A stretch of 54,883 nt of DNA, from contig CAWEXP010000007.1 of assembly GCA_963813065.1 (NCBI GenBank), positions 1-54,883 on the forward strand, written 5' to 3'. The notes under the pieces are model-generated. The model had not been told where the DNA came from, did not search any database, and saw only the letters and a list, made by a program, of their open reading frames with translations. Shown here piece by piece: positions 3,319 through 28,332 of the stretch. The stretch comes from Candidatus Kaiserbacteria bacterium (GTDB taxonomy: Bacteria > Patescibacteriota > Minisyncoccia > Phycocordibacterales > Phycocordibacteraceae). Both the position numbers and the translations under genes were made by a program. How positions within the stretch are numbered: position 1 is the stretch's first letter; each line of letters starts with the position of its first letter.

Positions 3319-5229
3319 ATGACCGTCGCAGAGGTGCGCAAGCGCTACTTAGATTTTTTCGCCAAGCGGGGACACAAAATTATCCCGTCGGCGCCAATCG
3401 TACCCGAGAACGATCCAACGACGCTCTTCACGAGTAGTGGGATGCAACCGTTGGTGCCGTACCTGCTCGGCGCGGAGCATCCCGAGGGTGTGCGGCTCAC
3501 CGATTCTCAACTCTCATTTCGCGCTGAAGATATAGAAGAAGTCGGCGACAATCGCCACACGACCTTCTTCGAAATGTTGGGGAATTGGAGTTTAGGAGAT
3601 TATTTTAAAAAAGAGCAATTGCCTTGGTTCTACGAATTTCTTACTAGCCCGACCGAAGGTTTAGGGCTGAGCGCAGAAAAACTGTTCGTCTCCACTTTCT
3701 CTGGCGACGAAGAGAGCGGGATGTCTGCCGACACTGAATCTAAAGAAATCTGGGAACGCATCGGGATTCCTAAAGAGCGCATCTACTCGTATGGCGCGAA
3801 GAAAAATTGGTGGAGCCGCGCGGGCGTACCGAGCAACATGCCTGCGGGCGAGATTGGCGGGCCGGACTCGGAGGTTTTTTACGATTTTGGTCTCCCGCAT
3901 GACCCCGCGTTTGGCCCCGAGTGCCACCCCAACTGCGATTGCGGCCGCTTCGTCGAGATTGGCAACTCCGTTTTTATGCAGTTCATCAAGCAGGCCGACG
4001 GCACCTTCAAAGAATTGCCGAAGCGCAATGTCGACTTCGGCGGCGGGCTCGAACGCCTCACTGCGGCAACGCGCGGCAACCCCGACATTTTTCTCGTCGA
4101 CGTTTTCGATTCTGCGCGTGCGGTCATTGAACAGCGCTCGGGCATCCAATATGGGGACACGCCGTGTCCGACTTCAGAAGTCGGACACGGCGTGTCCAAC
4201 CTTCGGTCGTTCAGGATAATTCTCGACCATATGCGCGCCGCGAGCTTCATGCTCGCCTCGGGCATCACGCCGGCGAACTCCGAGCAAGGCTACGTGCTCC
4301 GCCGCCTCATCCGTCGTTCCATCCGCGAAGCGGACAAGCTCGGGATTAAAGACGCAGTGCTCGCCGACGTGGCGGAAGGGTACGGCGCTGCATATGCCAC
4401 TGCCTATCCATTTGTTTCCGCGAATCACGACTTCATCCGCGACGAACTCGCGAAAGAGGAGGCGCAGTTCCGAAAAATTCTGAACTCGGGACTTTTTGCG
4501 CTAGAAAACGAAATTAAGAAAATTATCGACATTAAAACTGAGTGGGTTGGGGGCCTAGAAGAGGACGCTCAGGGTAACAACATTGCAACTAGGATGTTGC
4601 CTCGCGATGTTGTGTTCGATTTATATCAGACAAAGGGGATTCCATTTGAGTTAATCAAAGAAATCGCAACCGAGAATAAAGTATTTATCGATGAAAGAGA
4701 TTTTGAGGAACGTAAGTCGCAACATCAAGCCGAGTCCCGTGCCGGCGCAGCGCAAAAGTTCGCGGGAGGATTGGCAGATCATGCGGAGAAGACGATTCAG
4801 TACCACACCGCGCACCACCTATTGCTCAAAGCGTTGCAAATAGTTCTTGGCAAGGATGTCCACCAGCGCGGGAGCAATATCACCAGCGAGCGTCTGCGCA
4901 TCGATTTCTCGTTCTCGCACAAAATGACGCCGGAAGAAATTAAAAAAGTGGAAGACATTGTGAACGAGAAAATTGCCGAGGGAATTCCGGTCGTGCGCAC
5001 CGTGATGAAAAAAGAAGATGCGGAGAAACTCGGTGCCGAGCACGAGTTCGGTGCCTCCTATCCCGAAATGGTCTCGGTGTATTCGGTCGGCCCGCTCGAC
5101 AATGCATTCTCGATAGAATTCTGTGGTGGCCCGCACGTGGCGAACACGAGCGAGCTCGGCCATTTCAAGATTGTGAAGGAAGAAGCGTCATCGGCTGGCG
5201 TTCGACGAATCAAAGCAGTGTTAGAATAA
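3319..5229 (+). CDS. alaS: alanine--tRNA ligase (short form without C-Ala domain)
   Basis: DPTTLFTSSGMQP, HTTFFEMLGNWS, HTAHHLL and EFCGGPHV editing motifs. Start moved to ATG 3319, which follows TGGTATGGT by 7 nt. Confidence 0.96.
   Translation: MTVAEVRKRYLDFFAKRGHKIIPSAPIVPENDPTTLFTSSGMQPLVPYLLGAEHPEGVRLTDSQLSFRAEDIEEVGDNRHTTFFEMLGNWSLGDYFKKEQLPWFYEFLTSPTEGLGLSAEKLFVSTFSGDEESGMSADTESKEIWERIGIPKERIYSYGAKKNWWSRAGVPSNMPAGEIGGPDSEVFYDFGLPHDPAFGPECHPNCDCGRFVEIGNSVFMQFIKQADGTFKELPKRNVDFGGGLERLTAATRGNPDIFLVDVFDSARAVIEQRSGIQYGDTPCPTSEVGHGVSNLRSFRIILDHMRAASFMLASGITPANSEQGYVLRRLIRRSIREADKLGIKDAVLADVAEGYGAAYATAYPFVSANHDFIRDELAKEEAQFRKILNSGLFALENEIKKIIDIKTEWVGGLEEDAQGNNIATRMLPRDVVFDLYQTKGIPFELIKEIATENKVFIDERDFEERKSQHQAESRAGAAQKFAGGLADHAEKTIQYHTAHHLLLKALQIVLGKDVHQRGSNITSERLRIDFSFSHKMTPEEIKKVEDIVNEKIAEGIPVVRTVMKKEDAEKLGAEHEFGASYPEMVSVYSVGPLDNAFSIEFCGGPHVANTSELGHFKIVKEEASSAGVRRIKAVLE
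4155..4197. repeat. 43-bp perfect palindrome (family A) in-frame in alaS
   Basis: GGACACGCCGTGTCCGACTTC-A-GAAGTCGGACACGGCGTGTCC; translates as DTPCPTSEVGHGVS. Confidence 0.95.
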
Positions 5230-14850: not shown

Positions 14851-16740
14851 ATGGCAAAAATACTTGGGATCGACTTGGGCACCACGAACTCCGCGATGGC
14901 AATCGTCGAGGGCGGCGAGCCGCGCGTACTAGAGAACGCCGAGGGCGCGCGCACCACGCCTTCGATTGTTGCGATCGGGAAGAACGGCGAGCGCATCGTC
15001 GGCACCTTGGCCAAGCGCCAGTCGGTGACGAATCCGCTCAACACCATTTTCCAAATCAAGCGTTTCATCGGCCACAACTTCGACGAGGCTGATGTCCAGA
15101 AGGACAAGGCGGTGGTTCCGTTCGAAATGAGAAAGGCAGAAAATGGTGGCATCGAGGTCAAGATGAGCGAGAAATGGTATCGTCCTGAAGAAATCTCCGC
15201 GATGATATTAGGGAAGCTTAAGGCCGATGCCGAGACCAAGCTCGGCGAAAAGATTACCGAGGCCGTCATCACCGTGCCCGCCTACTTCAACGACGACCAG
15301 CGGAGCGCGACCAAGGCCGCGGGCGAGATCGCGGGGCTCAAGGTCTTGCGCATCATCAACGAGCCGACGGCCGCCGCGCTCGCGTATGGATTTAATAAAA
15401 AGAAGGACGAGAAGATCGCGGTCTTCGACTTCGGCGGCGGGACCTTCGACATCTCAGTGCTCGAAGTGGGCGATGATGTCATCGAGGTCAAATCGACCGA
15501 CGGCGACGCCCACCTGGGCGGTAAGGATATCGACCAGAAGATTATCAACTGGCTCGCCGACGAATTTAAAAAGGAGAGCGGCATCGACGTGCGCACCGAT
15601 GCCCTCGCGCGCCAGCGCCTCGACGAGGCCGCCGAGAAGGCGAAGATTGAGCTCTCGACTGCGGTCGAGACCGAGATCAATATTCCGTTCATCACCTCCG
15701 ACGCATCCGGCCCGCGACACCTTTTGATTAAAATGTCGCGAGCTAAACTCGAGGAGCTCTCGGCCGAATTCATCGACCGTGCGCTCGCGATCACCAAGCG
15801 CGCGATGGAAGCGTCGCCCTTCAAGATTGGCGATTTGCAGGAAGTGATTCTCGTTGGTGGCCAGACGCGCATGCCTGCGATCCAAGCGGCGGTCGAGAAC
15901 TATTTCGGCAAGAAGCCGAACATGACGGTGAACCCCGACGAGGTCGTCGCGATGGGCGCGGCGATCCAGGCCGGCATTCTCCAGGGCGACGTGAAGGACA
16001 TTCTCCTCGTGGACGTTATCCCGCTCTCGCTCGCGATCGAGACGGCGGGTGGCGTTGCGACCAAGCTCGTCGAGCGCAACACCGCAATCCCGACCAGCCG
16101 CTCGCAGACCTTCTCGACTGCGGCCGACAATCAGCCGGGCGTCGAGATCCACATCACGCAGGGCGAGCGCGCGATGAGTGCCGACAATAAGTCGCTGGGC
16201 AGGTTTATGCTTGATGGTATCCCGCCGGCGCCACGTGGCTTGCCGCAAATCGAAGTCAGTTTCGACATCGACGCCTCCGGTATTTTGACCGTGAAGGCCA
16301 AGGAGAAGACGACGGGCAAAGAGCAGTCGATAAAAATTTCTGGTTCGACCGGCCTCTCGAAAGAGGATATCGAGCGGATGCAAAAGGATGCCGAGGCGAA
16401 CTCTGCGGAGGACGCAAAGCGCAAAGACCTCGCCGATGCGCGCAATCTCGCCGACCAGATGGTCTATGCCGCCGAGAAGGCGATTAAGGACAACGGCGAG
16501 AAAGCGGGCGCTGAGGTGGTGAAAGAGGTGCAGGATAAAATCGACGCCTTGAAGACCGCACAGAAGAGTGATGACCTCGCGACGCTCAAGTCTGCGACCG
16601 ATGCACTCTCCTCGACCATGTCGAAAATTGGCGAGGCGATGATGAAGAATCAAACCCCGCCGGCCGGAGGCGGAGCCGCAGGCCCCGATCAGAATGGAGG
16701 GGAGGCTGGAGCGACCGACGCGGAATTTAAAGAGAAATAA
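14851..16740 (+). CDS. dnaK: chaperone DnaK
   Basis: [31 protein letters not shown]. Confidence 0.99.
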
Positions 16741-17474: not shown

Positions 17475-18605
17475 ATGGCAAAAGATTATTATCACGTGCT
17501 CGGGATAGACAAGAAGGCAAGCGCCGAGGAGGTCAAGAAGGCCTTCCGTAAGCTGGCGCAGAAGCACCACCCCGACAAGGGCGGTGACGAAGCGAAATTC
17601 AAGGAGATTACCGAGGCCTACTCGGTCTTGAGCGATGCCAAGCGCCGCCGCGAGTACGACGCCTATGGGCAGTCGTTCCCCGGCGGTAATCCAGGTGCGG
17701 GCGCCCAAGGGAATCCATTTTCGGGCTCTGGTCCGAGTGGTAATCCATTTTCGGGCTTTGACTTCTCACAATTCCAGCACGCGGGTGGCGGCTTCGGGCA
17801 AGGCGGCGCCGAGTTCGACTTCGGTGATATTTTCGGCGATGTCTTCGGTGGCCGCGCCAATCGTGCGCGCACGCCGCGGGGCCGCGACATTTCTATCGAC
17901 CTCGAGATTCCCTTTAAAGAATCCATTTTCGGCACCACGCGCAAAGTGCTCATCGCAAAAGTTTCGACCTGCGAGCTCTGCAAGGGTTCGGGCGCCAAGC
18001 CCGGTACCGAGCTTGAAACGTGCAAAACCTGCAACGGTTCGGGCCGCATCCACGAGACGCGCAATTCTATTCTCGGCCAGTTCAGCACCGTGCGCCCGTG
18101 CGACGCTTGCGGTGGCACGGGCAAAGTGCCCAAGGAGAAGTGCCCGGAGTGCAAGGGTCACGGCACGCGCCGACGCGAAGAAGAAATCACTATCACCATT
18201 CCTCCGGGCATCGAGAGCGGCGAGATGATTCGTTTGCCTCAGCAGGGCGAGGCGCTGAAGGGCGGCGTCGCGGGTGACCTCTATGCAAAAATTCATGTCC
18301 CCAAGCATCCGACCTTCCGCAAGGAGGGTTCGAATCTCGTCATGCGTCTGCCGGTTAAGCTCACCGATGCTCTGCTCGGCGCGAAAGTCGCCGTCGAGAC
18401 TCTGGAAGGGAAGACACTCGAAGTCACCTTGCCACAGATGAAGAAGACCGAGGAAATCTTGCGCGTGCGCGGCCGTGGCGTCCCCCTCGACTCTCGCTCG
18501 GGGCAAGCCGGAGACCTTTTGATTTATGTTGAAATAGTTCTACCGCAAAAACTTACCAACAGGTTGAAGAAATCGCTCGAAGACTTGCGCGACGAAGGGG
18601 TATAA
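17475..18605 (+). CDS. dnaJ: chaperone DnaJ
   Basis: J domain with HPD, G/F region, four CxxCxGxG repeats. Confidence 0.98.
18483..18507 (+). repeat. family D hairpin element in dnaJ
   Basis: CCCC-TCGAC-TCTC-GCTC-GGGG-CAAG; translates as PLDSRSGQ. Confidence 0.6.
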
Positions 18606-18612
18606 TCGGCGC

Positions 18613-19134
18613 ATGCCCGTCCAGACGACGCTCACGCAGGTCAACACCATCGCGACGCATACCGCACTCTCGACCTGGAATTCGGCCGAAGAATTCCTCG
18701 CGGTCCTCGTGCTCTTCGGTATTTTCTTCCTTATCGCGTGGTACGTGGGGAAGGGTACGTTCTTTTCTATCCTCATCGCCTTCTATCCTGCGTACGCGCT
18801 CTACTCGATTTTCCCCTACTTCTCCTCTCTGCCCAGCACGCCGCCTCTGACGGCGCTTGTCGCGCAGGTCGGGACCTTTATTGCGTTCACGGTCGTCGCG
18901 TTCATCATCCTGCGCCGCGTCGTCGTTTCTGATTTCCTCTACGTCGGCATTATCGGCATGAGTATCCTCAGCTTCCTCGGCGCGGGCTTCGTCCTCGCGC
19001 TCGCGTACCACACCTTCCCGGTCACTTCGATTTACCAGTTCACCCCGGCCGTCAACGCACTCTTCGCGCCTAAGCAATACTTCTTCTGGTGGTTCGTTGC
19101 TCCCCTCATTGGCCTCCTCTTTTTCGCACATTAA
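18613..19134 (+). CDS. hypothetical membrane protein (about 5 TM)
   Basis: Hydrophobic 173-aa ORF with host-like codon usage. Confidence 0.8.
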   Translation: MPVQTTLTQVNTIATHTALSTWNSAEEFLAVLVLFGIFFLIAWYVGKGTFFSILIAFYPAYALYSIFPYFSSLPSTPPLTALVAQVGTFIAFTVVAFIILRRVVVSDFLYVGIIGMSILSFLGAGFVLALAYHTFPVTSIYQFTPAVNALFAPKQYFFWWFVAPLIGLLFFAH

Positions 19135-19156
19135 AAAAGCCCCGCGTGAGCGGGGC
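19133..19156 (-). terminator. intrinsic terminator between convergent genes
   Basis: A6-GCCCCGC-gtga-GCGGGGC on the plus strand. Confidence 0.7.
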
Positions 19157-19162
19157 AGGAAA

Positions 19163-19793
19163 TTATTTTGTTGAAGTAGTTTGGGGAGCTAGGAGAGCGA
19201 CCTCAGCTTCAATCACGCTTGCGATATTACAGGCATAATCAAGCGCAGCTACTCGACGGTGCTTCCATTCAAGAATGGCCTCACCTATACGTTCCCAAAG
19301 ATCGCGCGGAGTGATCTCAAGAGTGCGACACAATCCGATTGGTAAGATCGGAGTGATACCGCGTACTTGATGAGTACGTCTGCCGAGATGGTCTTCAGAA
19401 ACAATCTCGACCAAAAACCATTCTCCGTCACGGCTCAGTCCCCAAAACTTACTTATAAATCCAAAGGGTAGAGCGTCATCTGATTCTCGTAGAGACGTTC
19501 TCTTGGATACAAGCGACCCTATGCGATGTTCTGCAGGGAAAATGCCTCGTGTCTTGAAGGAGAACGTAGTATCAGATGCTGGTCGATAGTTAGGAATGAT
19601 ATCTCGAAGTTTGCTGTACTGATCTTCTTCACGCACCGCGCCCTCAATATCACCAAGCTCTTTGAGAGTCATTTCGCGCGCAAGAAACAAAAAGCTGACT
19701 TCTCTTGTGAAGTAAAACAAGCCAATCTAGTTCGGTAAGCGGTTCCTGGCGGGCCAGGATACGAATACCGTCTAAGTGCTGTCTCGGAAACAT
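19163..19793 (-). CDS. hypothetical protein (probable frameshift near 19690)
   Basis: AAGGAG RBS and ATG at 19793, promoter TTGACA-17 nt-TAGACT at 19903-19875; joins the 19163..19720 ORF across a T homopolymer. Confidence 0.55.
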
Positions 19794-19944
19794 GCACTTT
19801 CTCCTTACTTAGAATCGAGCGGCGGGCCGCTAGATTCGGCGCTATTCCACCATTGGAACAGCTTTCCATACAAAAGTCTACATTGCTCTCGAATATCTGT
19901 CAATTTTGTGCGACCCGCATAAGGAGCATGGTAAAGTGCATCGC

Positions 19945-20388
19945 ATGGCACTCGTAGAGGGATTATGGGAAATTAAACCGATCGCTCCTGAATGTTTTGA
20001 CGATTTCTTCTCAATTCTTGCCGAGAGCAATGAAGAGCCCCTCACGGATGCTAGCAAAGATCAGTTGCGAGCTGATTTTACGGAAGGTCGCTACCTAGGT
20101 TGGCTACTGTATTCGACAGATGCACTCGCGGGAATGGCGATTGTTATGAGTTCCTACTCCGTCGCGCACGTCCGGTCTGTCCTCTATCTTGATGAGCTAT
20201 TTATTCGCGAACCTTTTCGTGGCAAAGGTTTCGGCAAAAGCCTGTTTGAATACGTCGTGGCCTATGCCAAAGAGGAAAAATATATGCGTCTTGAATGGCG
20301 CACAAAGAAAGATAACGTGGTTGCCCAGAGCCTCTATGCGCACTACACCACCGACACAAACTGGATTTGGTACGGAATGGCGCTTTGA
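19945..20388 (+). CDS. GNAT family N-acetyltransferase
   Basis: LYLDELFI..PFRGKGFGK acetyl-CoA motif, N..AQSLY. Confidence 0.9.
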   Translation: MALVEGLWEIKPIAPECFDDFFSILAESNEEPLTDASKDQLRADFTEGRYLGWLLYSTDALAGMAIVMSSYSVAHVRSVLYLDELFIREPFRGKGFGKSLFEYVVAYAKEEKYMRLEWRTKKDNVVAQSLYAHYTTDTNWIWYGMAL

Positions 20389-20993
20389 TGATGATAAAAC
20401 TCATAATTGACTACGGCGCCGAGCGAGAAGTCCGTCGTGTCGAACGGCTCGTCCCGCGCATCCCATGGTTCAAAGAAAACGGCTATGCAATAACACTACC
20501 TGAAGGAATAGCTGAAGATAGTACGGAAACCGACATTAATACGGCGATAAAAAACGAATATTCAGAAGCATCTTATCTTGCCTACGCACACTCAGTGCAA
20601 GAACCATGGGAAAAGTTTTTGCCGCGTCTAACTGAAATCCGGAGTACCCTCCCTTTTGCCTTACGCGATGCGTACACGCTCGTACTCACGAGATACGGCA
20701 CTGGCGGTAGTTATGATGCCATCTCGGGCACTATCGTTATCAATATTGTCACACGATCCCAAGAACGCGCGCTCGGCACCCTTATTCATGAAGCCATTCA
20801 TATTGCAGTTCAGCCGCTCATCGAAAAATATAAAGTCTCGCATTGGCGAAAAGAACGCCTAGTTGATCTTATCGGCGAGAGATATTTCGCGAATCTACGA
20901 AAAATGCAGAATCTTAAAGAAGATGTTTCAGTGGTGGATGTAGCTTTCGCCAACTTTTACCCCGATATTGAGAAGATTTGTAGCGTGGTATAG
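20388..20993 (+). CDS. hypothetical protein with HExxH (putative zincin)
   Basis: YGTGGSY...IHEAIH...KERLVD. Confidence 0.7.
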   Translation: MMIKLIIDYGAEREVRRVERLVPRIPWFKENGYAITLPEGIAEDSTETDINTAIKNEYSEASYLAYAHSVQEPWEKFLPRLTEIRSTLPFALRDAYTLVLTRYGTGGSYDAISGTIVINIVTRSQERALGTLIHEAIHIAVQPLIEKYKVSHWRKERLVDLIGERYFANLRKMQNLKEDVSVVDVAFANFYPDIEKICSVV

Positions 20994-21001
20994 TTTCCCC
21001 T

Positions 21002-22327
21002 ATGACCCCCATTAGAAAGCTCGAGGACTCGCGTTCAAACGGGGCGAGCCTCGCAGAAGAACTGAAGGCGCGCGGGCTGGTAGAGGTGAGCTCGAAGCCC
21101 ATTGAGGAGATACTGGGCACGCCGCGGACGGTGTACCTCGGCGTTGACCCGACCGCGGATTCTATCCAGGCGGGGAATCTCGCGGTCGTGCTCCTGATGA
21201 AGCGCCTCGCCGACGCCCGCCCGAACGACGGTTCAGTCGGGCGGGCAGGGCACAAGCTGATTTTCCTCGTCGGTGGCGGCACCGGCATGATTGGCGACCC
21301 CAAGGAGCGCGGCGAGCGCGCCATGCTTGATGCCAAGGTCGTCGCGAGCAATACGCGCGCCATCACGAAGCAGTTGAAAGGTATTCTCGGCCGCACACCT
21401 TTCAAGATGGTCGACAACGCCGACTGGCTCCTCGCGGAAAAATTGGTGCCCTTCCTGCGCGACGTGGGGAAATATTTCACCGTCAACGATTTGATAAAGC
21501 GCGAACTCATCGCCAAGCGCCTCGCGACGCCCGACGAGAGCATTTCGTACACCGAGTTCACCTACGCGCTTCTGCAAGGCTTCGATTATTTCACTCTGCA
21601 TAAAAAATATGCGTGTGATTTGCAAATTGGCGGCTCCGACCAGTGGACCAACATCCTCTCGGGCGTTGACCTGATCCACAAGCGCACGGGTGACCTCGTG
21701 TACGCGTTCGCGATGCCGCTCGTCACGGATACCGCAGGGAAAAAATTTGGCAAATCAGAGGGCAATGCCGTCTGGCTCGATCCCAAGAAAACCTCGCCGC
21801 TCGCGTTCTATCAGTTCTGGATGAACTTGCCGGATGAGGGCATCGAGAAATATTTGAAGGTCTACACCTTCCTGCCGCTGGTCGAGATTGAAGCGCTGAT
21901 GGAGCTCCACAAGCAGGCGCCGCAGAAACGCCAAGCGCAGGAGACCCTCGCGCGGCTCGTGACCGAGATTGTTCACGGCCCCGCGACGACCGCGCAGGTG
22001 ATCGCCGCAACCGATGCGCTCTATGGCGGCCGTTCGTTTTCGACCCTTTCGAAACTTGAGCTTGATGTCGTTCGTGCCGAAGCACCTTCCATGCAAATAT
22101 CGAGGTTAAACCTCGATACCGGATACTCGCTGGCAGAAGCTCTTGTCGCGGGTGGTCTCGCTACCTCCAAGAGTGACGCACGTCGCCTCATCGAAGGGAA
22201 GGGCATCACGCTCTCCGGCCTGCCGGTCGAAAATCCGGATTTGAAATTATTTGCGCACGACCTGCCCGGCGGCATCGCACTGGTGCGCAAAGGCAAGCAG
22301 GGCGTGCTCGTGCTCATCGCTCGCTAG
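21002..22327 (+). CDS. tyrS: tyrosine--tRNA ligase
   Basis: YLGVDPTADS, QIGGSDQW, KFGKS, C-terminal S4 domain. Confidence 0.97.
   Translation: MTPIRKLEDSRSNGASLAEELKARGLVEVSSKPIEEILGTPRTVYLGVDPTADSIQAGNLAVVLLMKRLADARPNDGSVGRAGHKLIFLVGGGTGMIGDPKERGERAMLDAKVVASNTRAITKQLKGILGRTPFKMVDNADWLLAEKLVPFLRDVGKYFTVNDLIKRELIAKRLATPDESISYTEFTYALLQGFDYFTLHKKYACDLQIGGSDQWTNILSGVDLIHKRTGDLVYAFAMPLVTDTAGKKFGKSEGNAVWLDPKKTSPLAFYQFWMNLPDEGIEKYLKVYTFLPLVEIEALMELHKQAPQKRQAQETLARLVTEIVHGPATTAQVIAATDALYGGRSFSTLSKLELDVVRAEAPSMQISRLNLDTGYSLAEALVAGGLATSKSDARRLIEGKGITLSGLPVENPDLKLFAHDLPGGIALVRKGKQGVLVLIAR
21215..21249 (+). repeat. family C palindromic insertion in tyrS
   Basis: GCCCGCCCGA-12 nt-TCGGGCGGGC-AGG; adds RPNDGSVGRA inside LADAGHK. 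Confidence 0.85.
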
Positions 22328-23404
22328 CGGAAAATAATTCGATAGACGAAGAAACTCTCGAAGGCGATAAGCGCCGAGGCGATAACTTGCGCCAGGATGT
22401 ACCAGAGGCCAAAGAATTGGACGAGCGCGTAGAGAATCGCCGTATTGAGTGCGAGATTGAAGATGTTTATCAAAAGGAAGAAGAATCCCTGGCGCGTGGG
22501 CGAACCGCCGGTGCCGCCAAAGGCCCAGAGTTTCTGTAGGGTGAAGTTATAGGCGACCGCGATGATGAACGCCACGATTTCCGACGCGAGGTACCAGAGG
22601 CCGAGGCCAGCGGTCAGCGCATAGAGCACGACGAGATTCACCAGCATGGCGGTGGTGCCTACGACGATGAAGCGGAATATCCGCGCGTGCGACTCGACGA
22701 AGAGCGTTACGATGCGCCAGACACAGCGGACGCCGTGCCGCCAATTTAACTTTTTCCCTTCGCTCGCGCTCCGCGCGTGGTAGTGAATCGGCACCTCGAC
22801 AATGCCGTGACGAGCCACGACGCGCGAGAGTTCGATGACGTCGAAGACGAAATCGGAACCCGGTTGCGCAAGGAGCTCGGGCACGAGCGAACGCGGGAAA
22901 ATTTTATAACAGGTCGAGAGATCGGTGAGGTGCGTCCCGAAGGCGATGTTGAAAAGCTGGTTCACCGCCCAACCACCCCAGTAATAGAAAAGGGCCGGGC
23001 ACATTGTTGTGAATCATCTGGCGAGAACCGAAGACGATGGATGCGCCTTCTTGTGGTGAGCCTGTCGAACCAGATTCGATTCGCGCCAAGAGGGCAGGCG
23101 TGTCGGCGGGATCATATTCGAGATCCGCATCTTGGATCATCAGGTAGTCGCCGCTCGCTCGGGCGAAGCCATCCTTGAGCGCCGCGCCCTTGCCGCCATT
23201 TTTTGCTCGGGTGAAAAGAATAATGCTCGGATATTGACGCGCTACTTCGCGCAGAGATTGTTTGGTTTCCTCGTTGCTCCCATCATCAACAATAATCACC
23301 TCGCGTTCCCAACCCGAAGGCAGAGGAACTTTTTGGACACGGCTCACAAGCTCGCCGATACTGTGCGGCTCGTTGTAGCAGGGGATGACAATGGAGAGCT
23401 TCAT
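22324..23404 (-). CDS. GT2 polyprenol-phosphate glycosyltransferase fused to GtrA-like domain (frameshift near 22990)
   Basis: LSIVIPCYNE, IVDDGS, NGGKGAA, QDADLEYDP; second frame has TDLSTCYK, EGKKL and a 4-TM GtrA-like tail. Confidence 0.85.
23050..23072 (-). repeat. family D hairpin element in the GT2 gene
   Basis: Minus strand TGGT-TCGAC-AG-GCTC-ACCA-CAAG; translates as GSTGSPQ. Confidence 0.65.
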
Positions 23405-24451
23405 ACTTCTGCACCGTGCAGAGCGAGCACGAGCCACGCGAGATTAGTCAGTATCACAAGGATCAGCGTACCCGCTCGCGCCCAGGGCGGCAAGTGATTG
23501 AGTCCCCAGACCGCGAGCAGGAGCGGGACCGGCGCCATCACGTAGAAGAGTCGGCTCGAGACTCAACCCCCAGCCGAAGACGATGAGCGAGGACGGGAGC
23601 GCGAACGCGAGAAAGCGCCGCTGTGCCGCCGGGAGCTCGGGCAAATGCCAGATCCCGACCGGCACCAGGAACCACGCGAGGCCGAGCAGAGCGATGGTGC
23701 TCTTGATGAGATTCTGCAGGGTGAACTGCGTGGTGAAGCCACGAACCGCGCCCACGGTGTACCAGGTGAGATAGGTGTAGTGATAGGCAAAATAGACCCA
23801 CACTTGTACGGCAAGCGTTGGCACGAGCGTGATCAGCGCAAGCAACGCAAGATTTTTTATGCGCGCTCGCCACGGCACGTTTTCAAAAAGTAAAACAAAA
23901 CCGAAAATAATCCCCGCGACGACACTGTATTCCTTCCACAAGAGACCGATTGCAATGACTGCACCGTTGAGAACCAAATGTTTGCGCAATGGCCAGCGAA
24001 TATAGAGAAGGGTGAACACGAGCGAAAGCAAGTAGAAAAATTGCGCACCAGTCTCGGTGTAGAGATCGAGACCATAGCGCAGGAGCGGATACGAGAGTGC
24101 GCCGAGAAGCGCGGCAACGAGCGCGCGCCAGTAATCCTCGAAAAAAGAATAAGCGAGCCAGTAGAGCACGAGCACGAAGGCGAAATAGAAAATCAGGACT
24201 TCGAGCAGGAACGCGGTGGGAAAGCCGAGGTAGGGTGCCGCGAGCGCGACACCGAGCGGCGCGAGCGGCTTCAAAATCCGCTGTGGATAGATTGGTGCGG
24301 GGAGGCCCGAGAAGATTTTTGCCGTCGAAATGTAATCCACATAGTCACTATTGGGCGCGGTGCCAAGCACCCCAATCTTAAAGGTGGCCGCGAGCGCGCA
24401 GACAATCAGCAGGAACACCAGCGGCCACGCATGGGCCTTCAGCGTCGTCAT
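23401..24451 (-). CDS. polytopic membrane protein, putative GT-C glycosyltransferase (frameshift near 23560)
   Basis: Many TM helices, D...Y in first loop, LLWKE. The corrected frame ends with TGA overlapping the GT2 ATG. Confidence 0.65.
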
Positions 24452-24549
24452 CGCGCCATCATACCACCCAGTCTCAGTGGCACCCGCAGGTTATTGACAA
24501 ATAGCATAAGAGCGTGTATATAAAATGAGGACAAAAGAAGGAACCTACT

Positions 24550-25014
24550 ATGTCAGAGTCATGGCGCACTGCCGCACAGCGGTATCGCAACCCGACGCCG
24601 CAACCAGCATCACACAAAGCGTCTCCGCAACCTCGTCAACCTCGGACCTCAACGTCAGTCGACGTCCAGGGCCTCATTGAACAGTTGTCACTTTTCCTTG
24701 ACGGCGACGAAGGTGCTACCGCACGCGAACTGCTCGCGGCAAGCAAGTCACATATCAACCTCGGTGAAGATAAGCCGACTATGGGCTACGGGCGAGTCTA
24801 CTTTCTCGACGGCACTGGCCTTCATTGTTCAACCGAAGCGATGGGCATGTTGATCGCATATTCCGGATCATCGAGGCCTACGATACGTGACCTGCCGATT
24901 AAAGACCTCGTCGAGGGTATCGCTGCGTGCGACTACCCCTCAGCTCCTCTCGCCAACATGCTCTCGTGGATCCGCGGGCGACTCGATGGGATTGCCCAAC
25001 ACGCACCCGCATAA
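24550..25014 (+). CDS. hypothetical protein
   Basis: 154-aa ORF with TTGACA promoter near 24494, AAGGA RBS and downstream terminator. Confidence 0.7.
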   Translation: MSESWRTAAQRYRNPTPQPASHKASPQPRQPRTSTSVDVQGLIEQLSLFLDGDEGATARELLAASKSHINLGEDKPTMGYGRVYFLDGTGLHCSTEAMGMLIAYSGSSRPTIRDLPIKDLVEGIAACDYPSAPLANMLSWIRGRLDGIAQHAPA

Positions 25015-25029
25015 TCTTTCTTCACCCTC

Positions 25030-25054
25030 GGGGCAGCACACGCTGCCCCTTTTT
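25030..25054 (+). terminator. intrinsic terminator
   Basis: GGGGCAGC-acac-GCTGCCCC-T5. Confidence 0.8.
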
Positions 25055-25111
25055 CATAAAAAGTATCTGTGCATCGTGGGGGACGAGACTAGAACGGTTT
25101 TGAGTGCATAG

Positions 25112-25143
25112 AAAAAAGCCGTCGGGTTGTACCGGCGGCTTTT
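25112..25143 (-). terminator. intrinsic terminator (bidirectional type)
   Basis: A6-GCCGTCGG-6 nt-CCGGCGGC-T run. Confidence 0.7.
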
Positions 25144-25160
25144 CGAAGCACGTAGCGGGC

Positions 25161-25460
25161 TTACGATCTCTTGCGGCTGGCCGACGATGAACCACCAAGA
25201 GTGATAATTGTCCCGAGCCAATAACCGAAGTTGTACCAGCCACCGTTGTTGTGAACCTCGTAGATCGAAATGTTGCTGTCGAACAACGAGAAAATGAAAG
25301 TGAATGGCATGACGAACCCTTGCCAGAGGCCCATCCAGAATCCTGCCGTACTTCCGTGAACATCTGGCACATGCGCCATCGGATTAGGACCTGCGCACGC
25401 GGTCAATATCAGCGCCGCGCCAATAATGCAAGCGACACTTAGAACGGTGCGAATTTTCAT
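25161..25460 (-). CDS. putative lipoprotein / small membrane protein
   Basis: Lipobox LTAC, GFWMGLWQG...IYEVHNNGGWYNFG; GGAG RBS. Confidence 0.75.
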   Translation of the reverse strand: MKIRTVLSVACIIGAALILTACAGPNPMAHVPDVHGSTAGFWMGLWQGFVMPFTFIFSLFDSNISIYEVHNNGGWYNFGYWLGTIITLGGSSSASRKRS

Positions 25461-25542
25461 CGCTATCTCCATTGAAGGGACACACGGGCGGGACTGCTAC
25501 CCAAAGACCATTGTGCACATGAAAATATTTCTGTCAATTCTG

Positions 25543-25626
25543 TGCGCCGGGAAGGATTCGAACCTTCGTAGGACTATGTCCGACAGGTTTACAGCCTGTT
25601 GCAATTGACCACTCTGCCACCGACGC
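25543..25626 (-). tRNA. tRNA-Tyr (GUA), CCA not encoded
   Basis: GCGTCGG/CCGGCGC acceptor stem with A73, anticodon loop CTGTAAA, long variable arm GGAC-ATA-GTCC, GGTTCGAATCC T arm. Confidence 0.96.
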
Positions 25627-25627
25627 A

Positions 25628-25870
25628 TTACGCACGAAGTAACTTCTTAAAAGCTTCTCCGCCCTTGTAACTTTTTATTTGTTTTTCGCGAGCATACGCC
25701 ATTGACTGCTCGGCGAGTACTTCTTTATATACCACAGACCAAGGTTTATGCCACTTCGTTGCCGCGCTGTAACCCGCATTATGTTCACTCAAACGACGAC
25801 TGAGATTGGAGGTACAGCCGATATAAAAACGATTCGTTTTTTGACTCTGGAGAATGTAAACCGTCCACAT
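25628..25870 (-). CDS. small GIY-YIG nuclease family protein
   Basis: VYILQS...FYIGCT..L.RRL.EHN...RE.QIK. Confidence 0.92.
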   Translation of the reverse strand: MWTVYILQSQKTNRFYIGCTSNLSRRLSEHNAGYSAATKWHKPWSVVYKEVLAEQSMAYAREKQIKSYKGGEAFKKLLRA

Positions 25871-25873
25871 ACC

Positions 25874-25934
25874 TTACAGCCTGTTGCAATTGACTTCACC
25901 CCGCCAACGGCGGGGCAAGCTCTGCCACCGACGC
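25874..25934 (-). pseudogene. duplicated 5' half of tRNA-Tyr with a 25-nt palindromic insert in the D loop
   Basis: Blocks of 15 nt and 21 nt identical to the tRNA 5' half, separated by TTCACCCCGCCAACGGCGGGGCAAG (plus strand, 25895-25919). Confidence 0.9.
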
Positions 25935-25982
25935 GATGGGGAAGAGTATACCAGTTTCTCCCATTTCTGCTATAGTTTTCCC

Positions 25983-26936
25983 ATGGCGAAGCCCATCATG
26001 CTCTCGGGGATTAAGCCCTCCGGCACGATCCATATCGGCAACTATTTCGGCGCGATGCGCCAGTTGGTCGAGCTCAGCAAGAGCGGGAAGTACCAGCCCT
26101 ATATTTTCGTCGCGGATTATCACGCGCTCAACACCACCCAAGACGCCGACGCGATGCGCGCTCAGACCCGCGAGCTCGTGATGGCCTATCTCGCCGTCGG
26201 CCTCGACCCGAAAGAGGTCGTCCTCTTCAAGCAGTCAGAGGTATCGGCGCACACCGAACTCGCGTGGATATTCGACGCCATCACCACGATGCCGTATCTC
26301 ATGCGCGCACACGCCTACAAGGATGCCGAAGCGAAGAATAAAGAAATCACCGTCGGCACCTTCAACTATCCGATGCTGATGGCGGCCGACATTTTACTCT
26401 ACGACACCGCACTCGTGCCCGTCGGCGCGGACCAGAAGCAACACGTCGAGTATGCGCGCGACACCGCGGAGAAGTTTAACCGCATTTTCAAACAAGAAGT
26501 GTTCAGCTTGCCCGAGCCGTACATCCTGCCCGATGTCGCCGTCGTCCCCGGCACCGACGGACAGAAGATGAGCAAGAGTTACGGCAACATCATCCCGCTC
26601 TTCGCTAGTCACGATGAGCTCGCCAAGTGCGTGATGAGCATTGTGACTGATTCGAGCGGCGGCCGACCGGAAAATGTCTATCAAATCCACAAGCTCGTTC
26701 GCGGTGCAGAAGAGCTCGACTCGATATATGAGGAACACAAAGGCAGTTACAAAATTTTGAAAGAATTACTGATTGCGGACCTCGACCGCTACTTCGGCCC
26801 GATGCGTGCCAAGTATGAGGAATTGAAAAATAATCCCGACATCGTCGAGCAGGTTCTGCTGGAGGGGAAGCACGCGGCCCGTGCCGCGAGCGAAGCAAAG
26901 ATGGAGCAGGTGCGCAAAGCTATCGGGGTCGCATAA
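25983..26936 (+). CDS. trpS: tryptophan--tRNA ligase
   Basis: SGIKPSG..HIGN, YPMLMAADILLY, VPVGADQKQH, KMSKS. Confidence 0.97.
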   Translation: MAKPIMLSGIKPSGTIHIGNYFGAMRQLVELSKSGKYQPYIFVADYHALNTTQDADAMRAQTRELVMAYLAVGLDPKEVVLFKQSEVSAHTELAWIFDAITTMPYLMRAHAYKDAEAKNKEITVGTFNYPMLMAADILLYDTALVPVGADQKQHVEYARDTAEKFNRIFKQEVFSLPEPYILPDVAVVPGTDGQKMSKSYGNIIPLFASHDELAKCVMSIVTDSSGGRPENVYQIHKLVRGAEELDSIYEEHKGSYKILKELLIADLDRYFGPMRAKYEELKNNPDIVEQVLLEGKHAARAASEAKMEQVRKAIGVA

Positions 26937-26946
26937 TTTTTATACT

Positions 26947-28332
26947 ATGGAACGCACACTCATTGGGGAATTGGGGAAACACGTCGGCGAGACAGTGCGC
27001 ATCAGCGGCTGGGTGGATGTGCGGCGCGACCAGGGGAAGATGGTGTTCTTCGACTTCCGCGACCGCTCGGGGATTGTGCAGGGCGTGACTCTGCCGAATT
27101 CGCCCGCGCTCGAGACCGCGAAAACGCTCCGCAAGGAATTCGTTGTGAAAGTGTCGGGCACAGTCAATAAGCGCCCGGAGAAGAATGCGCAGACAGAGAA
27201 GCAGAACGGCGATATCGAGCTCGAGATTAAGGGCATCGAAATTCTCGCCGAGGCCGAATCACTACCCTTTGACCTCTCGGTCGACGGATTCAATCTCGAC
27301 CTGACGACTCAGCTCGACCATCGCGCGCTCGTCTTGCGCCACCCGCGCTTGCGCGCCATTTTCAAAATCCAGAACGTCATCATCGACTCCTTCCGCGAGT
27401 TTATGAAGAGCCAAGGCTTCTTCGAATTCCAGGCGCCGACCATCACTCCCGCCGTCGCTGAGGGCGGTGCTGAAGTGTTCCGCGTTGATTACTTCGGCCA
27501 ACCGGCGTATCTCTCCCAGTCGCCCCAGCTCTACAAGCAGATTGTGATGACCGCCTTTGAGCGCGTGTTCTCGGTCAACAAAATTTTCCGCGCCGAGCCC
27601 TCTGCGACGACGCGCCACTTGACCGAGGTGGTCTCGCTCGATGCCGAATTCGGCTTCATCGAGTCGTGGAAGGATGTGCGCGACATATCCGAAGAGACCG
27701 TGCGCTACATTTTGAAAAAAATTGAGGAGACCTGCTCTGCCGAGCTCGCCTTCCTCGGTGCTGAGGTGCCGGTGATGATTGAGAAGACGCCGACGCTCTC
27801 CTTGGCCGAGGTGCAGGAGCGCATTTTCCAGGCGACCGGTCGCGATGTGCGTGGCGAGAAGGATACGAATCCCGAGGACGAGCGGACCATCTGCGAAATT
27901 ATTAAAAAAGAAACCGGTTCCGATTTCGTCTATGTCTATGGCTATCCGACGCGTCAGAAGCCTTTTTACGTCTACCCGAATCCCGAGGATCCCGAGTTCA
28001 ACGAAGGCATGGACCTCCTCTGCCGCGGCGTCGAATGGCTCTCAGGTGGCCGTCGCATCAACAATTACGCTCAGCTCTTGGAGCATGTCGAGAAGTGGGG
28101 CATGGACCCGAATAAAATTTCAATGTTCCTCGAGGCGTTCAAATATGGCGCGCCACCGGAAGGCGGCTTCGCCTTCGGCGCCGAGCGCATGACCATGCAG
28201 ATTCTCGGACTGAAGAACGTGCGCGAAGCCAGCATGTTCCCGCGTGATCTCAATCGTATCGACGAACTCTTGTCGCTCTCTACCGATGGCTCGACTCCAC
28301 TCACCATACATGGACCCGCTGACCAAAAGTAA
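26947..28332 (+). CDS. aspS: aspartate--tRNA(Asp/Asn) ligase, archaeal-type short form
   Basis: OB-fold N-terminus, YLSQSPQLYKQ, FRAEPS.T.RHLTE, YGAPPEGGFAFGAERM; no GAD insertion. Confidence 0.88.
   Translation: MERTLIGELGKHVGETVRISGWVDVRRDQGKMVFFDFRDRSGIVQGVTLPNSPALETAKTLRKEFVVKVSGTVNKRPEKNAQTEKQNGDIELEIKGIEILAEAESLPFDLSVDGFNLDLTTQLDHRALVLRHPRLRAIFKIQNVIIDSFREFMKSQGFFEFQAPTITPAVAEGGAEVFRVDYFGQPAYLSQSPQLYKQIVMTAFERVFSVNKIFRAEPSATTRHLTEVVSLDAEFGFIESWKDVRDISEETVRYILKKIEETCSAELAFLGAEVPVMIEKTPTLSLAEVQERIFQATGRDVRGEKDTNPEDERTICEIIKKETGSDFVYVYGYPTRQKPFYVYPNPEDPEFNEGMDLLCRGVEWLSGGRRINNYAQLLEHVEKWGMDPNKISMFLEAFKYGAPPEGGFAFGAERMTMQILGLKNVREASMFPRDLNRIDELLSLSTDGSTPLTIHGPADQK

Follow-up and report, generated by a model that had tools for sequence, protein, structure and literature searches.

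A tiny dispersed hairpin repeat, probably of mobile type, in coding sequences of a Candidatus Kaiserbacteria genome

Introduction

Several described kinds of short bacterial repeat bear comparison with the element analyzed here, a dispersed hairpin repeat of usually 24 nucleotides (nt) that we call family D and that we examine in three genes of a Candidatus Kaiserbacteria contig. Known repetitive extragenic palindromic (REP) elements carry the tetranucleotide GTAG at the foot of the hairpin. The small dispersed repeats (SDRs; SDR1-8) that Elhai et al. reportedly described in 2008 from Nostoc punctiforme and its relatives are said to be 21-27 nt long, dispersed and mostly outside genes in cyanobacteria, with some families forming hairpins and with no target duplication. 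Rickettsia palindromic elements (RPEs), reportedly described by Ogata et al. in 2000, are said to measure ~100-150 bp, to occur only in Rickettsia, and to lie in frame in conserved genes, where they are translated as extra surface peptides. Finally, according to Chenal et al. (2025; PMC11893778), the NTS/SRM hairpin repeats of Ssn nucleases are 20-50 nt long, occur in many phyla, and act as single-stranded DNA, and the SRM repeats flank the ssnA gene and depend on the stem rather than on the identity of the loop.

The stretch analyzed here (the window) is the whole of contig C7, 54,883 nt long, from an 814-kb, 10-contig assembly with 56% G+C (genome label G000). A sequence-only reading of the window had pointed to three hairpins of related form, and their coordinates and letters prove exact at all three sites. 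Judged by sequence, the hairpins in dnaJ and in a glycosyltransferase family 2 (GT2) gene are clear members of a real nucleotide-level repeat family. We take the third, in aspS, as a probable degenerate copy, with an appreciable though minor chance of coincidence: it has no G before CTC, and TACA stands where the family has CA(A/G)G.

Results

Three hairpins and their host genes

The three copies and the genes that carry them are as follows.

17475..18605, plus strand: host gene dnaJ (Pfam DnaJ, DnaJ_CXXCXGXG, DnaJ_C)
18483..18510, plus strand: family D copy in dnaJ, CCCC-TCGAC-TCTCG-CTC-GGGG-CAAG-CCG, read as peptide PLDSRSGQA; hairpin and CAAG at 18483-18507; covariance-model match with E 4.7e-5
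22324..23437, minus strand: host gene for a GT2 glycosyltransferase with a GtrA-type membrane domain, in two frames (Pfam Glycos_transf_2 at 22904-23437, GtrA_DPMS_TM at 22324-23004)
23047..23072, minus strand: family D copy in the GT2 gene, TGGT-TCGAC-AGG-CTC-ACCA-CAAG-AAG, read as peptide (S)GSTGSPQ; hairpin and CAAG at 23072-23050; covariance-model match with E 2.0e-4
26881..28332, plus strand: host gene aspS (class II D/K/N synthetase; Pfam tRNA-synt_2, tRNA_anti-codon)
28287..28310, plus strand: putative degenerate family D copy in the C-terminal tail of aspS, TGGC-TCGAC-TCCA-CTC-ACCA-TACA, read as peptide GSTPLTIH; hairpin alone at 28286-28307, ATGG-C-TCGAC-TCCACTC-A-CCAT

The GT2/GtrA gene also contains a single frame change at ~22995-23005 (minus strand), by a short C/T run ~50 nt downstream of the hairpin.

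A conserved loop and tail on a freely varying stem

The consensus of family D is N4-TCGAC-N3-4-CTC-N4'-CA(A/G)G-C, usually 24 nt or eight codons, in which a G may precede CTC, written (G)CTC. The 4-bp stem is free in sequence but complementary, while the loop TCGAC-N3-4-(G)CTC and the 3' tail CA(A/G)G-C are conserved. Measured against 40 second-order Markov simulations of the genome, N4-TCGAC-N3-5-CTC-N4' with fully complementary stems (4/4) occurs 12 times versus 0.9 +/- 1.1 in the simulations (maximum 5), and with the CA(A/G)G tail added it occurs seven times versus none in all 40. The same excess extends to the 61 genomes of the genus, where TCGAC-N3-5-CTC-N4-CA(A/G)G gives 208 matches versus 26 for the reversed pattern; by this tail-bearing pattern, copies per genome range from 0 to 22, with 13 in G000.

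Within G000, copies with CCCC...GGGG and with TGGT...ACCA stems bear identical loops (AGG, TTCG) and tails. Among 60 copies from five relatives, the flanks are unrelated and at least 10 different stem pairs occur, nearly all of them complementary. Complementarity is 4/4 in 39 and 3/4 in 24 of 73 copies, and the observed mean is reached by none of 2,000 permutations. When the relatives' 60 copies are aligned, 86.8% of the stem cells are paired, compared with 59.0 +/- 2.2 after shuffling (reached in 0/500) and 29-51% when the partner is displaced by one to three columns, and all four stem pairs vary on both sides. The earlier remark that the outer stems differ yet stay complementary is thus borne out by both the permutation and the covariation tests. 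A covariance model built solely from these 60 copies, the kind of check that the sequence-only reading had proposed, yields 10 matches below E 0.01 in G000; the dnaJ and GT2 hairpins are among them, and the aspS hairpin is not.

Family D is read in three different frames across its copies, which places it at the nucleotide level rather than among protein motifs. No Rfam match covers family D at the 15 loci searched (E <= 1), Acido-Lenti-1 having matched neighboring hairpins only. Three other interpretations were considered by eye, namely a bulge-helix-bulge mini-intron, a tRNA T-arm fragment, and an alternative 6-bp register, and none of them fits the covariation.

Placement in coding sequence

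Twelve copies of G000 lie inside coding sequence, with open reading frames running through all of them. Their hosts are TsaD, a PspC-like protein (recognized by eye), an aldolase, a trypsin-like peptidase, DnaJ, the GT2 enzyme, SecD, RNase HII, Tgt, a CCA-adding/poly(A) polymerase-type enzyme, GlyRS, and AspRS. All 12 are in the coding sense, and 9/12 are read in one frame as a Ser-Thr-(Ser/Gly)-rich peptide; in the relatives, at least 19 copies are sense versus 4 antisense. This bias may reflect a filter for harmless peptides or the strand of insertion. Some tail-less variants stand at gene ends or between genes.

Filled and empty sites in orthologs

Alignments with orthologs reveal insertions at several of these copies. 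The tsaD gene is longer by 24 nt (eight codons) than in four of five relatives, and the class I aldolase gene (FBA) by the same 24 nt than in all four relatives compared. In aspS, taking out TGGC-TCGAC-TCCA-CTC-ACCA-TACA restores GATGGACCCG, which is uninterrupted in the tail of the G011 ortholog, so that the removal of exactly 24 nt gives back a 10-nt match. The GT2 gene carries seven extra codons (21 nt) relative to four aligned homologs and eight relative to a fifth. The gaps that had been expected in the ortholog alignments are therefore present in GT2 and, at eight codons, in AspRS, and in DnaJ they appear in a shortened form that is taken up below.

The comparison also works in the opposite direction: in two-flank codon alignments, eight copies of relatives amount to exactly 24 nt more than the empty sites of G000. 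Empty sites in the window include the following.

3891..3898, plus strand: empty site; copy in relative G014, net +21 nt (codon alignment L117)
5160..5161, plus strand: empty site; 24-nt copy of relative G049 here (codon alignment L102)
16500..16501, plus strand: empty site; 24-nt copy of relative G062 exactly here (codon alignment L081)
26657..26664, plus strand: empty site in a class I W/Y synthetase gene (Pfam tRNA-synt_1b); 24-nt copy in G005 and G014 (codon alignments L069, L119)

Judged from these alignments, family D has been copied as a unit into new sites and has been gained and lost between species of one genus. Several species also retain copies at orthologous positions, glyS and secD being examples. 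No consistent target duplication and no consistent relation of stem to flank appears across the copies compared.

The tsaD gene of the fifth relative, G006 (L491), has a decaying copy at the same site as G000, with the 3' half intact, the 5' half diverged, and the eight extra codons kept. As a separate matter, we considered whether stems are copied from the host flank. This is rejected as a general rule here, since 36 comparisons of stem and flank gave one weak signal only, between the 5' stem and the 4 nt that lie 3' of the element (1.38 versus 1.17, reached by 8/1,000 permutations).

Spread beyond the genus

The stem variant CCCC...GGGG alone is found at 122 or more loci in a collection of species-representative genomes, where we estimate that ~4 would be expected by chance. 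The record titles name Acidobacteriota, Gemmatimonadota, Chloroflexota, Cyanobacteria, Alphaproteobacteria, Planctomycetota, and Verrucomicrobiota, and the same variant is found in two Bacteroidota isolates and in several groups of the Candidate Phyla Radiation (CPR). Flanks are unrelated across phyla, and some copies stand in tandem with a 24-nt period. Four genomes of other phyla have 47-90 copies each versus 1-6 control matches, and viral contigs add at least 129 loci, with stems complementary at three or more of four positions in 109/136 matches.

In these other phyla, copies are mostly modules of intergenic composite repeats. In genome G073, family D units and other recurring short words together build modular composite repeats of ~100-300 nt (L336-L349), and the copies occur as tandem dimers and as inverted pairs 60-77 nt apart. 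At locus L220 of a cyanobacterial metagenome-assembled genome, a pair of copies is nested in tandem heptamer repeats.

Discussion

A mobile-type repeat with a mobilizer in trans

We consider it fairly probable that family D is a tiny dispersed DNA repeat of mobile type, with a unit of usually 24 nt and a mobilizer acting in trans. A sequence-specific enzyme, presumably not encoded beside the copies, would read the repeat as a single-stranded DNA hairpin. In a gene-dense genome with little intergenic space, the surviving copies would be those that landed in frame in tolerant loops or tails of housekeeping proteins, and such copies would simply be translated as ~8 extra residues. The conserved loop and tail on a free but paired stem argue for such a sequence-specific reader of a single-stranded hairpin, whereas overlay copies (described below) and tandem arrays argue for microhomology-guided copying. 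Between the two, the reader has the edge.

Several observations weigh against a mobile repeat of this kind. As free DNA, the three hairpins fold no better than shuffled sequences (-3.5, -0.7, and -2.0 kcal/mol; z 0.84, 0.87, and -0.44), so that covariation alone carries the case for pairing. The aspS copy is missed by the relatives-only covariance model even at E <= 10. The dnaJ copy is not a clean insertion: the loop between GVP and GD is longer by only three codons (9 nt) than in 16/27 relatives. Relatives also have copies, in nth and rplL (names assigned by eye), that overlay native sequence with the length unchanged, and these overlay copies together with the 9 nt of dnaJ fit homology-guided copying better than a cut-and-paste enzyme. 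Nor are the copies accompanied by a candidate mobilizer: family D flanks none of the eight RAYT-like genes of G000 (REP-associated tyrosine transposases, listed below), nor those examined in G062, G069, and G049, and the flanks of seven small GIY-YIG genes in G000 contain no copy. Mobility itself we infer from presence and absence between species, not between near-identical strains.

A bolder form of the proposal, which we put forward only tentatively, is that a 24-nt module, near-identical across CPR, Acidobacteriota, Alphaproteobacteria, Cyanobacteria, and viral contigs, spreads without needing a transposase of its own and, in gene-dense genomes, writes 8-residue loops into essential proteins. 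The route could be an unrecognized, widely shared enzyme of single-stranded DNA, or it could be a property of replication itself.

A RAYT-like transposase as the mobilizer

A more specific candidate would be a RAYT-like Y1 (HUH) transposase that mobilizes family D by binding the hairpin and cutting at the CA(A/G)G tail, which we judge unlikely. G000 does contain eight RAYT-like Y1 genes (PF01797) with frames of 214-279 amino acids, in which HUH-type (H-hydrophobic-H) and Tyr motifs are seen by eye.

RAYT-like Y1 genes of G000 (PF01797): C5:2624-3337, C10:111876-112520, C10:143626-144465, C6:112761-113435, C10:132445-133149, C10:151852-152529, C10:166377-167054, C10:49106-49813

Across the genus, a PF01797 match is present in 11/11 genomes with at least seven copies versus 27/50 of the others, counts that overstate the link because the genomes are kin, and one RAYT subtype (at least 50% identity to the G062 protein) occurs in nine of the 11. 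The subtype is missing, however, from the high-copy genomes G049 and G069 and present in G017 and G050 (no copies) and in G012 and G004 (two each), and no PF01797 match at all is found in the high-copy genomes G073 (90 copies) and G075 (56). The inverted pairs of G073 resemble REPINs. In the acidobacterial genome G074, family D adjoins IS200-like Y1 genes at two of four loci, but the constant flanks of these genes are other hairpins, which match Rfam Acido-Lenti-1. For the acidobacterial Y1 protein that adjoins some of the copies, no match was obtained in G000, G005, G009, G062, or G049, and the ordinary IS200-type genes of the genus are likewise without flanking family D.

What the RAYT-like genes do carry, here and in relatives, is palindromes of their own. 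Most of those in G000 have a long perfect palindrome immediately upstream, downstream, or on both sides, such as TAGGACACGCCGTGTCCTA, AAGGAAGTCAGACTTCCTT, or TATCGAGGTTTAACCTCGATA; beside C10:143626-144465, none was found. These flanking palindromes are the most over-represented 14-mers of the genome, which looks like several parallel REP/RAYT-type systems within 0.8 Mb. The frame C10:132445-133149 contains in-frame copies of its own flanking palindrome, and a peptide stretch is present twice in the protein.

Two further observations concern genes and hairpins met in this search. In G074 (L324, L325), IS200-like Y1 genes are flanked by copies of Acido-Lenti-1 (RF01687), six of which score above the gathering threshold, which suggests that this "RNA motif" is a REP-type repeat of that IS200-like transposase. 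Among the seven small GIY-YIG genes of G000, three directly adjoin tRNA genes or tRNA fragments, and the number of GIY-YIG genes per genome, compared by eye, does not track the family D copy number. By eye, two similar tRNA-like sequences lie downstream of one such gene, at ~40400-40580 of contig C4; the first has a GCA anticodon loop, and the second contains a palindromic insert of ~45 nt in its D-loop region.

Copying without a dedicated enzyme

Equally improbable in our estimate is that no dedicated enzyme is involved: the hairpin would stall replication, and the repeat would spread by template switching or short-patch gene conversion through microhomology. As a corollary, intrastrand template switching would re-perfect the stems and so explain the compensatory changes without selection. 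The lack of a consistent target duplication and the tandem arrays with a 24-nt period fit such copying, as do the high-copy genomes without any Y1 gene and the weak match between the 5' stem and the following 4 nt. The overlay copies are chimeric and lie where native sequence was already similar to part of the element, in nth and rplL of relatives and also in dnaJ, where the native sequence of relatives (CCG CTC GAT...) resembles the 5' half of family D. The same dnaJ loop bears a reverse-orientation copy in G005 and a related copy in G015, three species in all. Against this, the loop and tail keep exactly the same letters in different phyla although the stem is free; this points to sequence-specific recognition, for which the model makes no provision. 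In addition, a thermodynamically weak hairpin would be a poor replication block, and most insertions have a constant 24 nt and unrelated flanks.

Host function and chance

We regard it as very unlikely that family D serves as a signal for regulation or processing, at the level of mRNA or DNA, such as a site bound by a conserved protein, and is maintained by selection in its host genes. The stem covariation, the strong sense bias, and the retention of copies at the orthologous glyS and secD sites would all be expected of such a signal. However, species of one genus have anywhere from 0 to 22 copies, and orthologs work without the insert; copies in other phyla are mostly found in intergenic composite repeats; the fold is weak and matches no Rfam family; and copies can decay where they stand, as tsaD of G006 shows.

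That the three hairpins are mere coincidences of coding sequence or a protein-level motif is hardly credible: the stems have only 4 bp, the aspS copy escapes the model, and the ~26 reversed-pattern matches in 61 genomes imply that a minority of single pattern matches are due to chance, but the strong enrichment, the covariation, the insertions, the three reading frames, and the exact 24-nt excision in aspS all speak against it. The sequence-only reading had left chance open for single copies; by the present comparisons it is already refuted for dnaJ and GT2 and keeps some weight for aspS.

The CA(A/G)G tail and other hairpins of the window

The tail CA(A/G)G followed by C is present in 47/73 family D copies and is part of the family D consensus; it is not common to other hairpin families. 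The proposal that CAAG/CAGG, or CTTG/CCTG on the opposite strand, forms a tag uniting several hairpin families does not hold up, as there is no excess of these words 3' of hairpins generally: of the genome's 5,423 perfect hairpins (stem >= 6), 23 have CAAG at their 3' end, versus 23.3 expected, and 19 have CAGG, versus 15.9 expected. A REP-like nuclease reading CTTG/CCTG would be a hypothetical enzyme. GC-rich 4-bp hairpins with such a tail, considered as carriers of a general tag, proved to be mostly noise and terminators, and the RAYT-associated palindromes have no CA(A/G)G tail.

CAAG does end the dnaJ and GT2 hairpins and also a hairpin in a tRNA fragment, as had been described; a tyrS hairpin said to end in CAGG was not located, there being no hairpin with a stem of at least 5 bp and a CA(A/G)G tail within 21002-22327. 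The tRNA-fragment hairpin is separate from family D.

25899-25919, plus strand: hairpin CCCCGCC-AAC-GGCGGGG-CAAG, not family D, inside a duplicated 5' fragment of tRNA-Tyr

The surrounding region (25542-25940) holds a small GIY-YIG gene (25628-25870, minus strand) that abuts tRNA-Tyr (25542-25626). Upstream of this gene lies the duplicated 5' fragment, with a 7-bp hairpin insert (25899-25915) in the D-loop region. The arrangement suggests a homing-type nuclease that has settled in a tRNA gene.

Implications

If a unit of 24 nt can move, it would set a lower size limit for mobile DNA and point to undescribed machinery or an undescribed copying process. Should the transposase-free form of the proposal be true, family D and its sister modules would rank with the smallest known mobile elements and would generate short insertions in proteins quite generally. 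Mobility would also account for part of the Ser/Thr/Gly-rich short insertions that make the proteins of ultra-small bacteria look odd. For practical purposes, family D is a marker of recent gene-level change between close species, and it is a warning to annotators that such 8-residue inserts are not protein motifs. Its conserved loop on a free, paired stem offers a concrete substrate for biochemical fishing of the enzyme.

Comparison with known systems

Set against REPs, REPINs, and their RAYT transposases (see Bertels and Rainey 2011; PMC3116915), family D shares the short hairpin, the tens of copies per genome, the inverted doublets (in G073), and the presence of RAYT-like genes in G000; its CA(A/G)G by the 3' stem may be a counterpart of the conserved REP tetranucleotide. 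REPs are found outside genes and beside the RAYT gene that belongs to them, whereas family D lies in coding sequence here and flanks none of the eight. It differs further in its variable 4-bp stem, its conserved loop, its CA(A/G)G tail in place of GTAG, and its high-copy genomes free of Y1 genes. The SRM repeats (PMC11893778) are similar in size as hairpin repeats and in their occurrence in many phyla, and small GIY-YIG genes are also present in G000. In contrast to them, family D has a conserved loop and a free stem, does not by eye fit the published SRM search pattern, and stands beside none of the seven small GIY-YIG genes examined.

In the literature searched, we found no description of the family D sequence or of in-frame hairpin repeats in Patescibacteria, and papers outside that literature may exist; the matches listed for 11-12-nt core strings are primers or unrelated, and the peptide words gave no paper. 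Like the RPEs, which reportedly sit in frame in conserved genes, family D appears to be carried in frame by conserved genes, with reading frames open through the 12 copies; it differs from what is said of RPEs in its 24-nt size and its cross-phylum distribution. As far as sequence can tell, family D fails the tests that define membership of REP/RAYT, RPE, and SRM.

Family D is also like the SDRs, as these are said to be: a very small unit (24 nt here), dispersed, forming a hairpin, and inserted without target duplication. Nesting in tandem heptamer repeats, reportedly another trait of SDRs, is seen for family D at L220. Compared with the SDRs as reported, family D is distinguished by its in-frame position inside housekeeping genes of a CPR bacterium and by its spread across many phyla. 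In size and mode of insertion, family D fits the definition of an SDR as reported.

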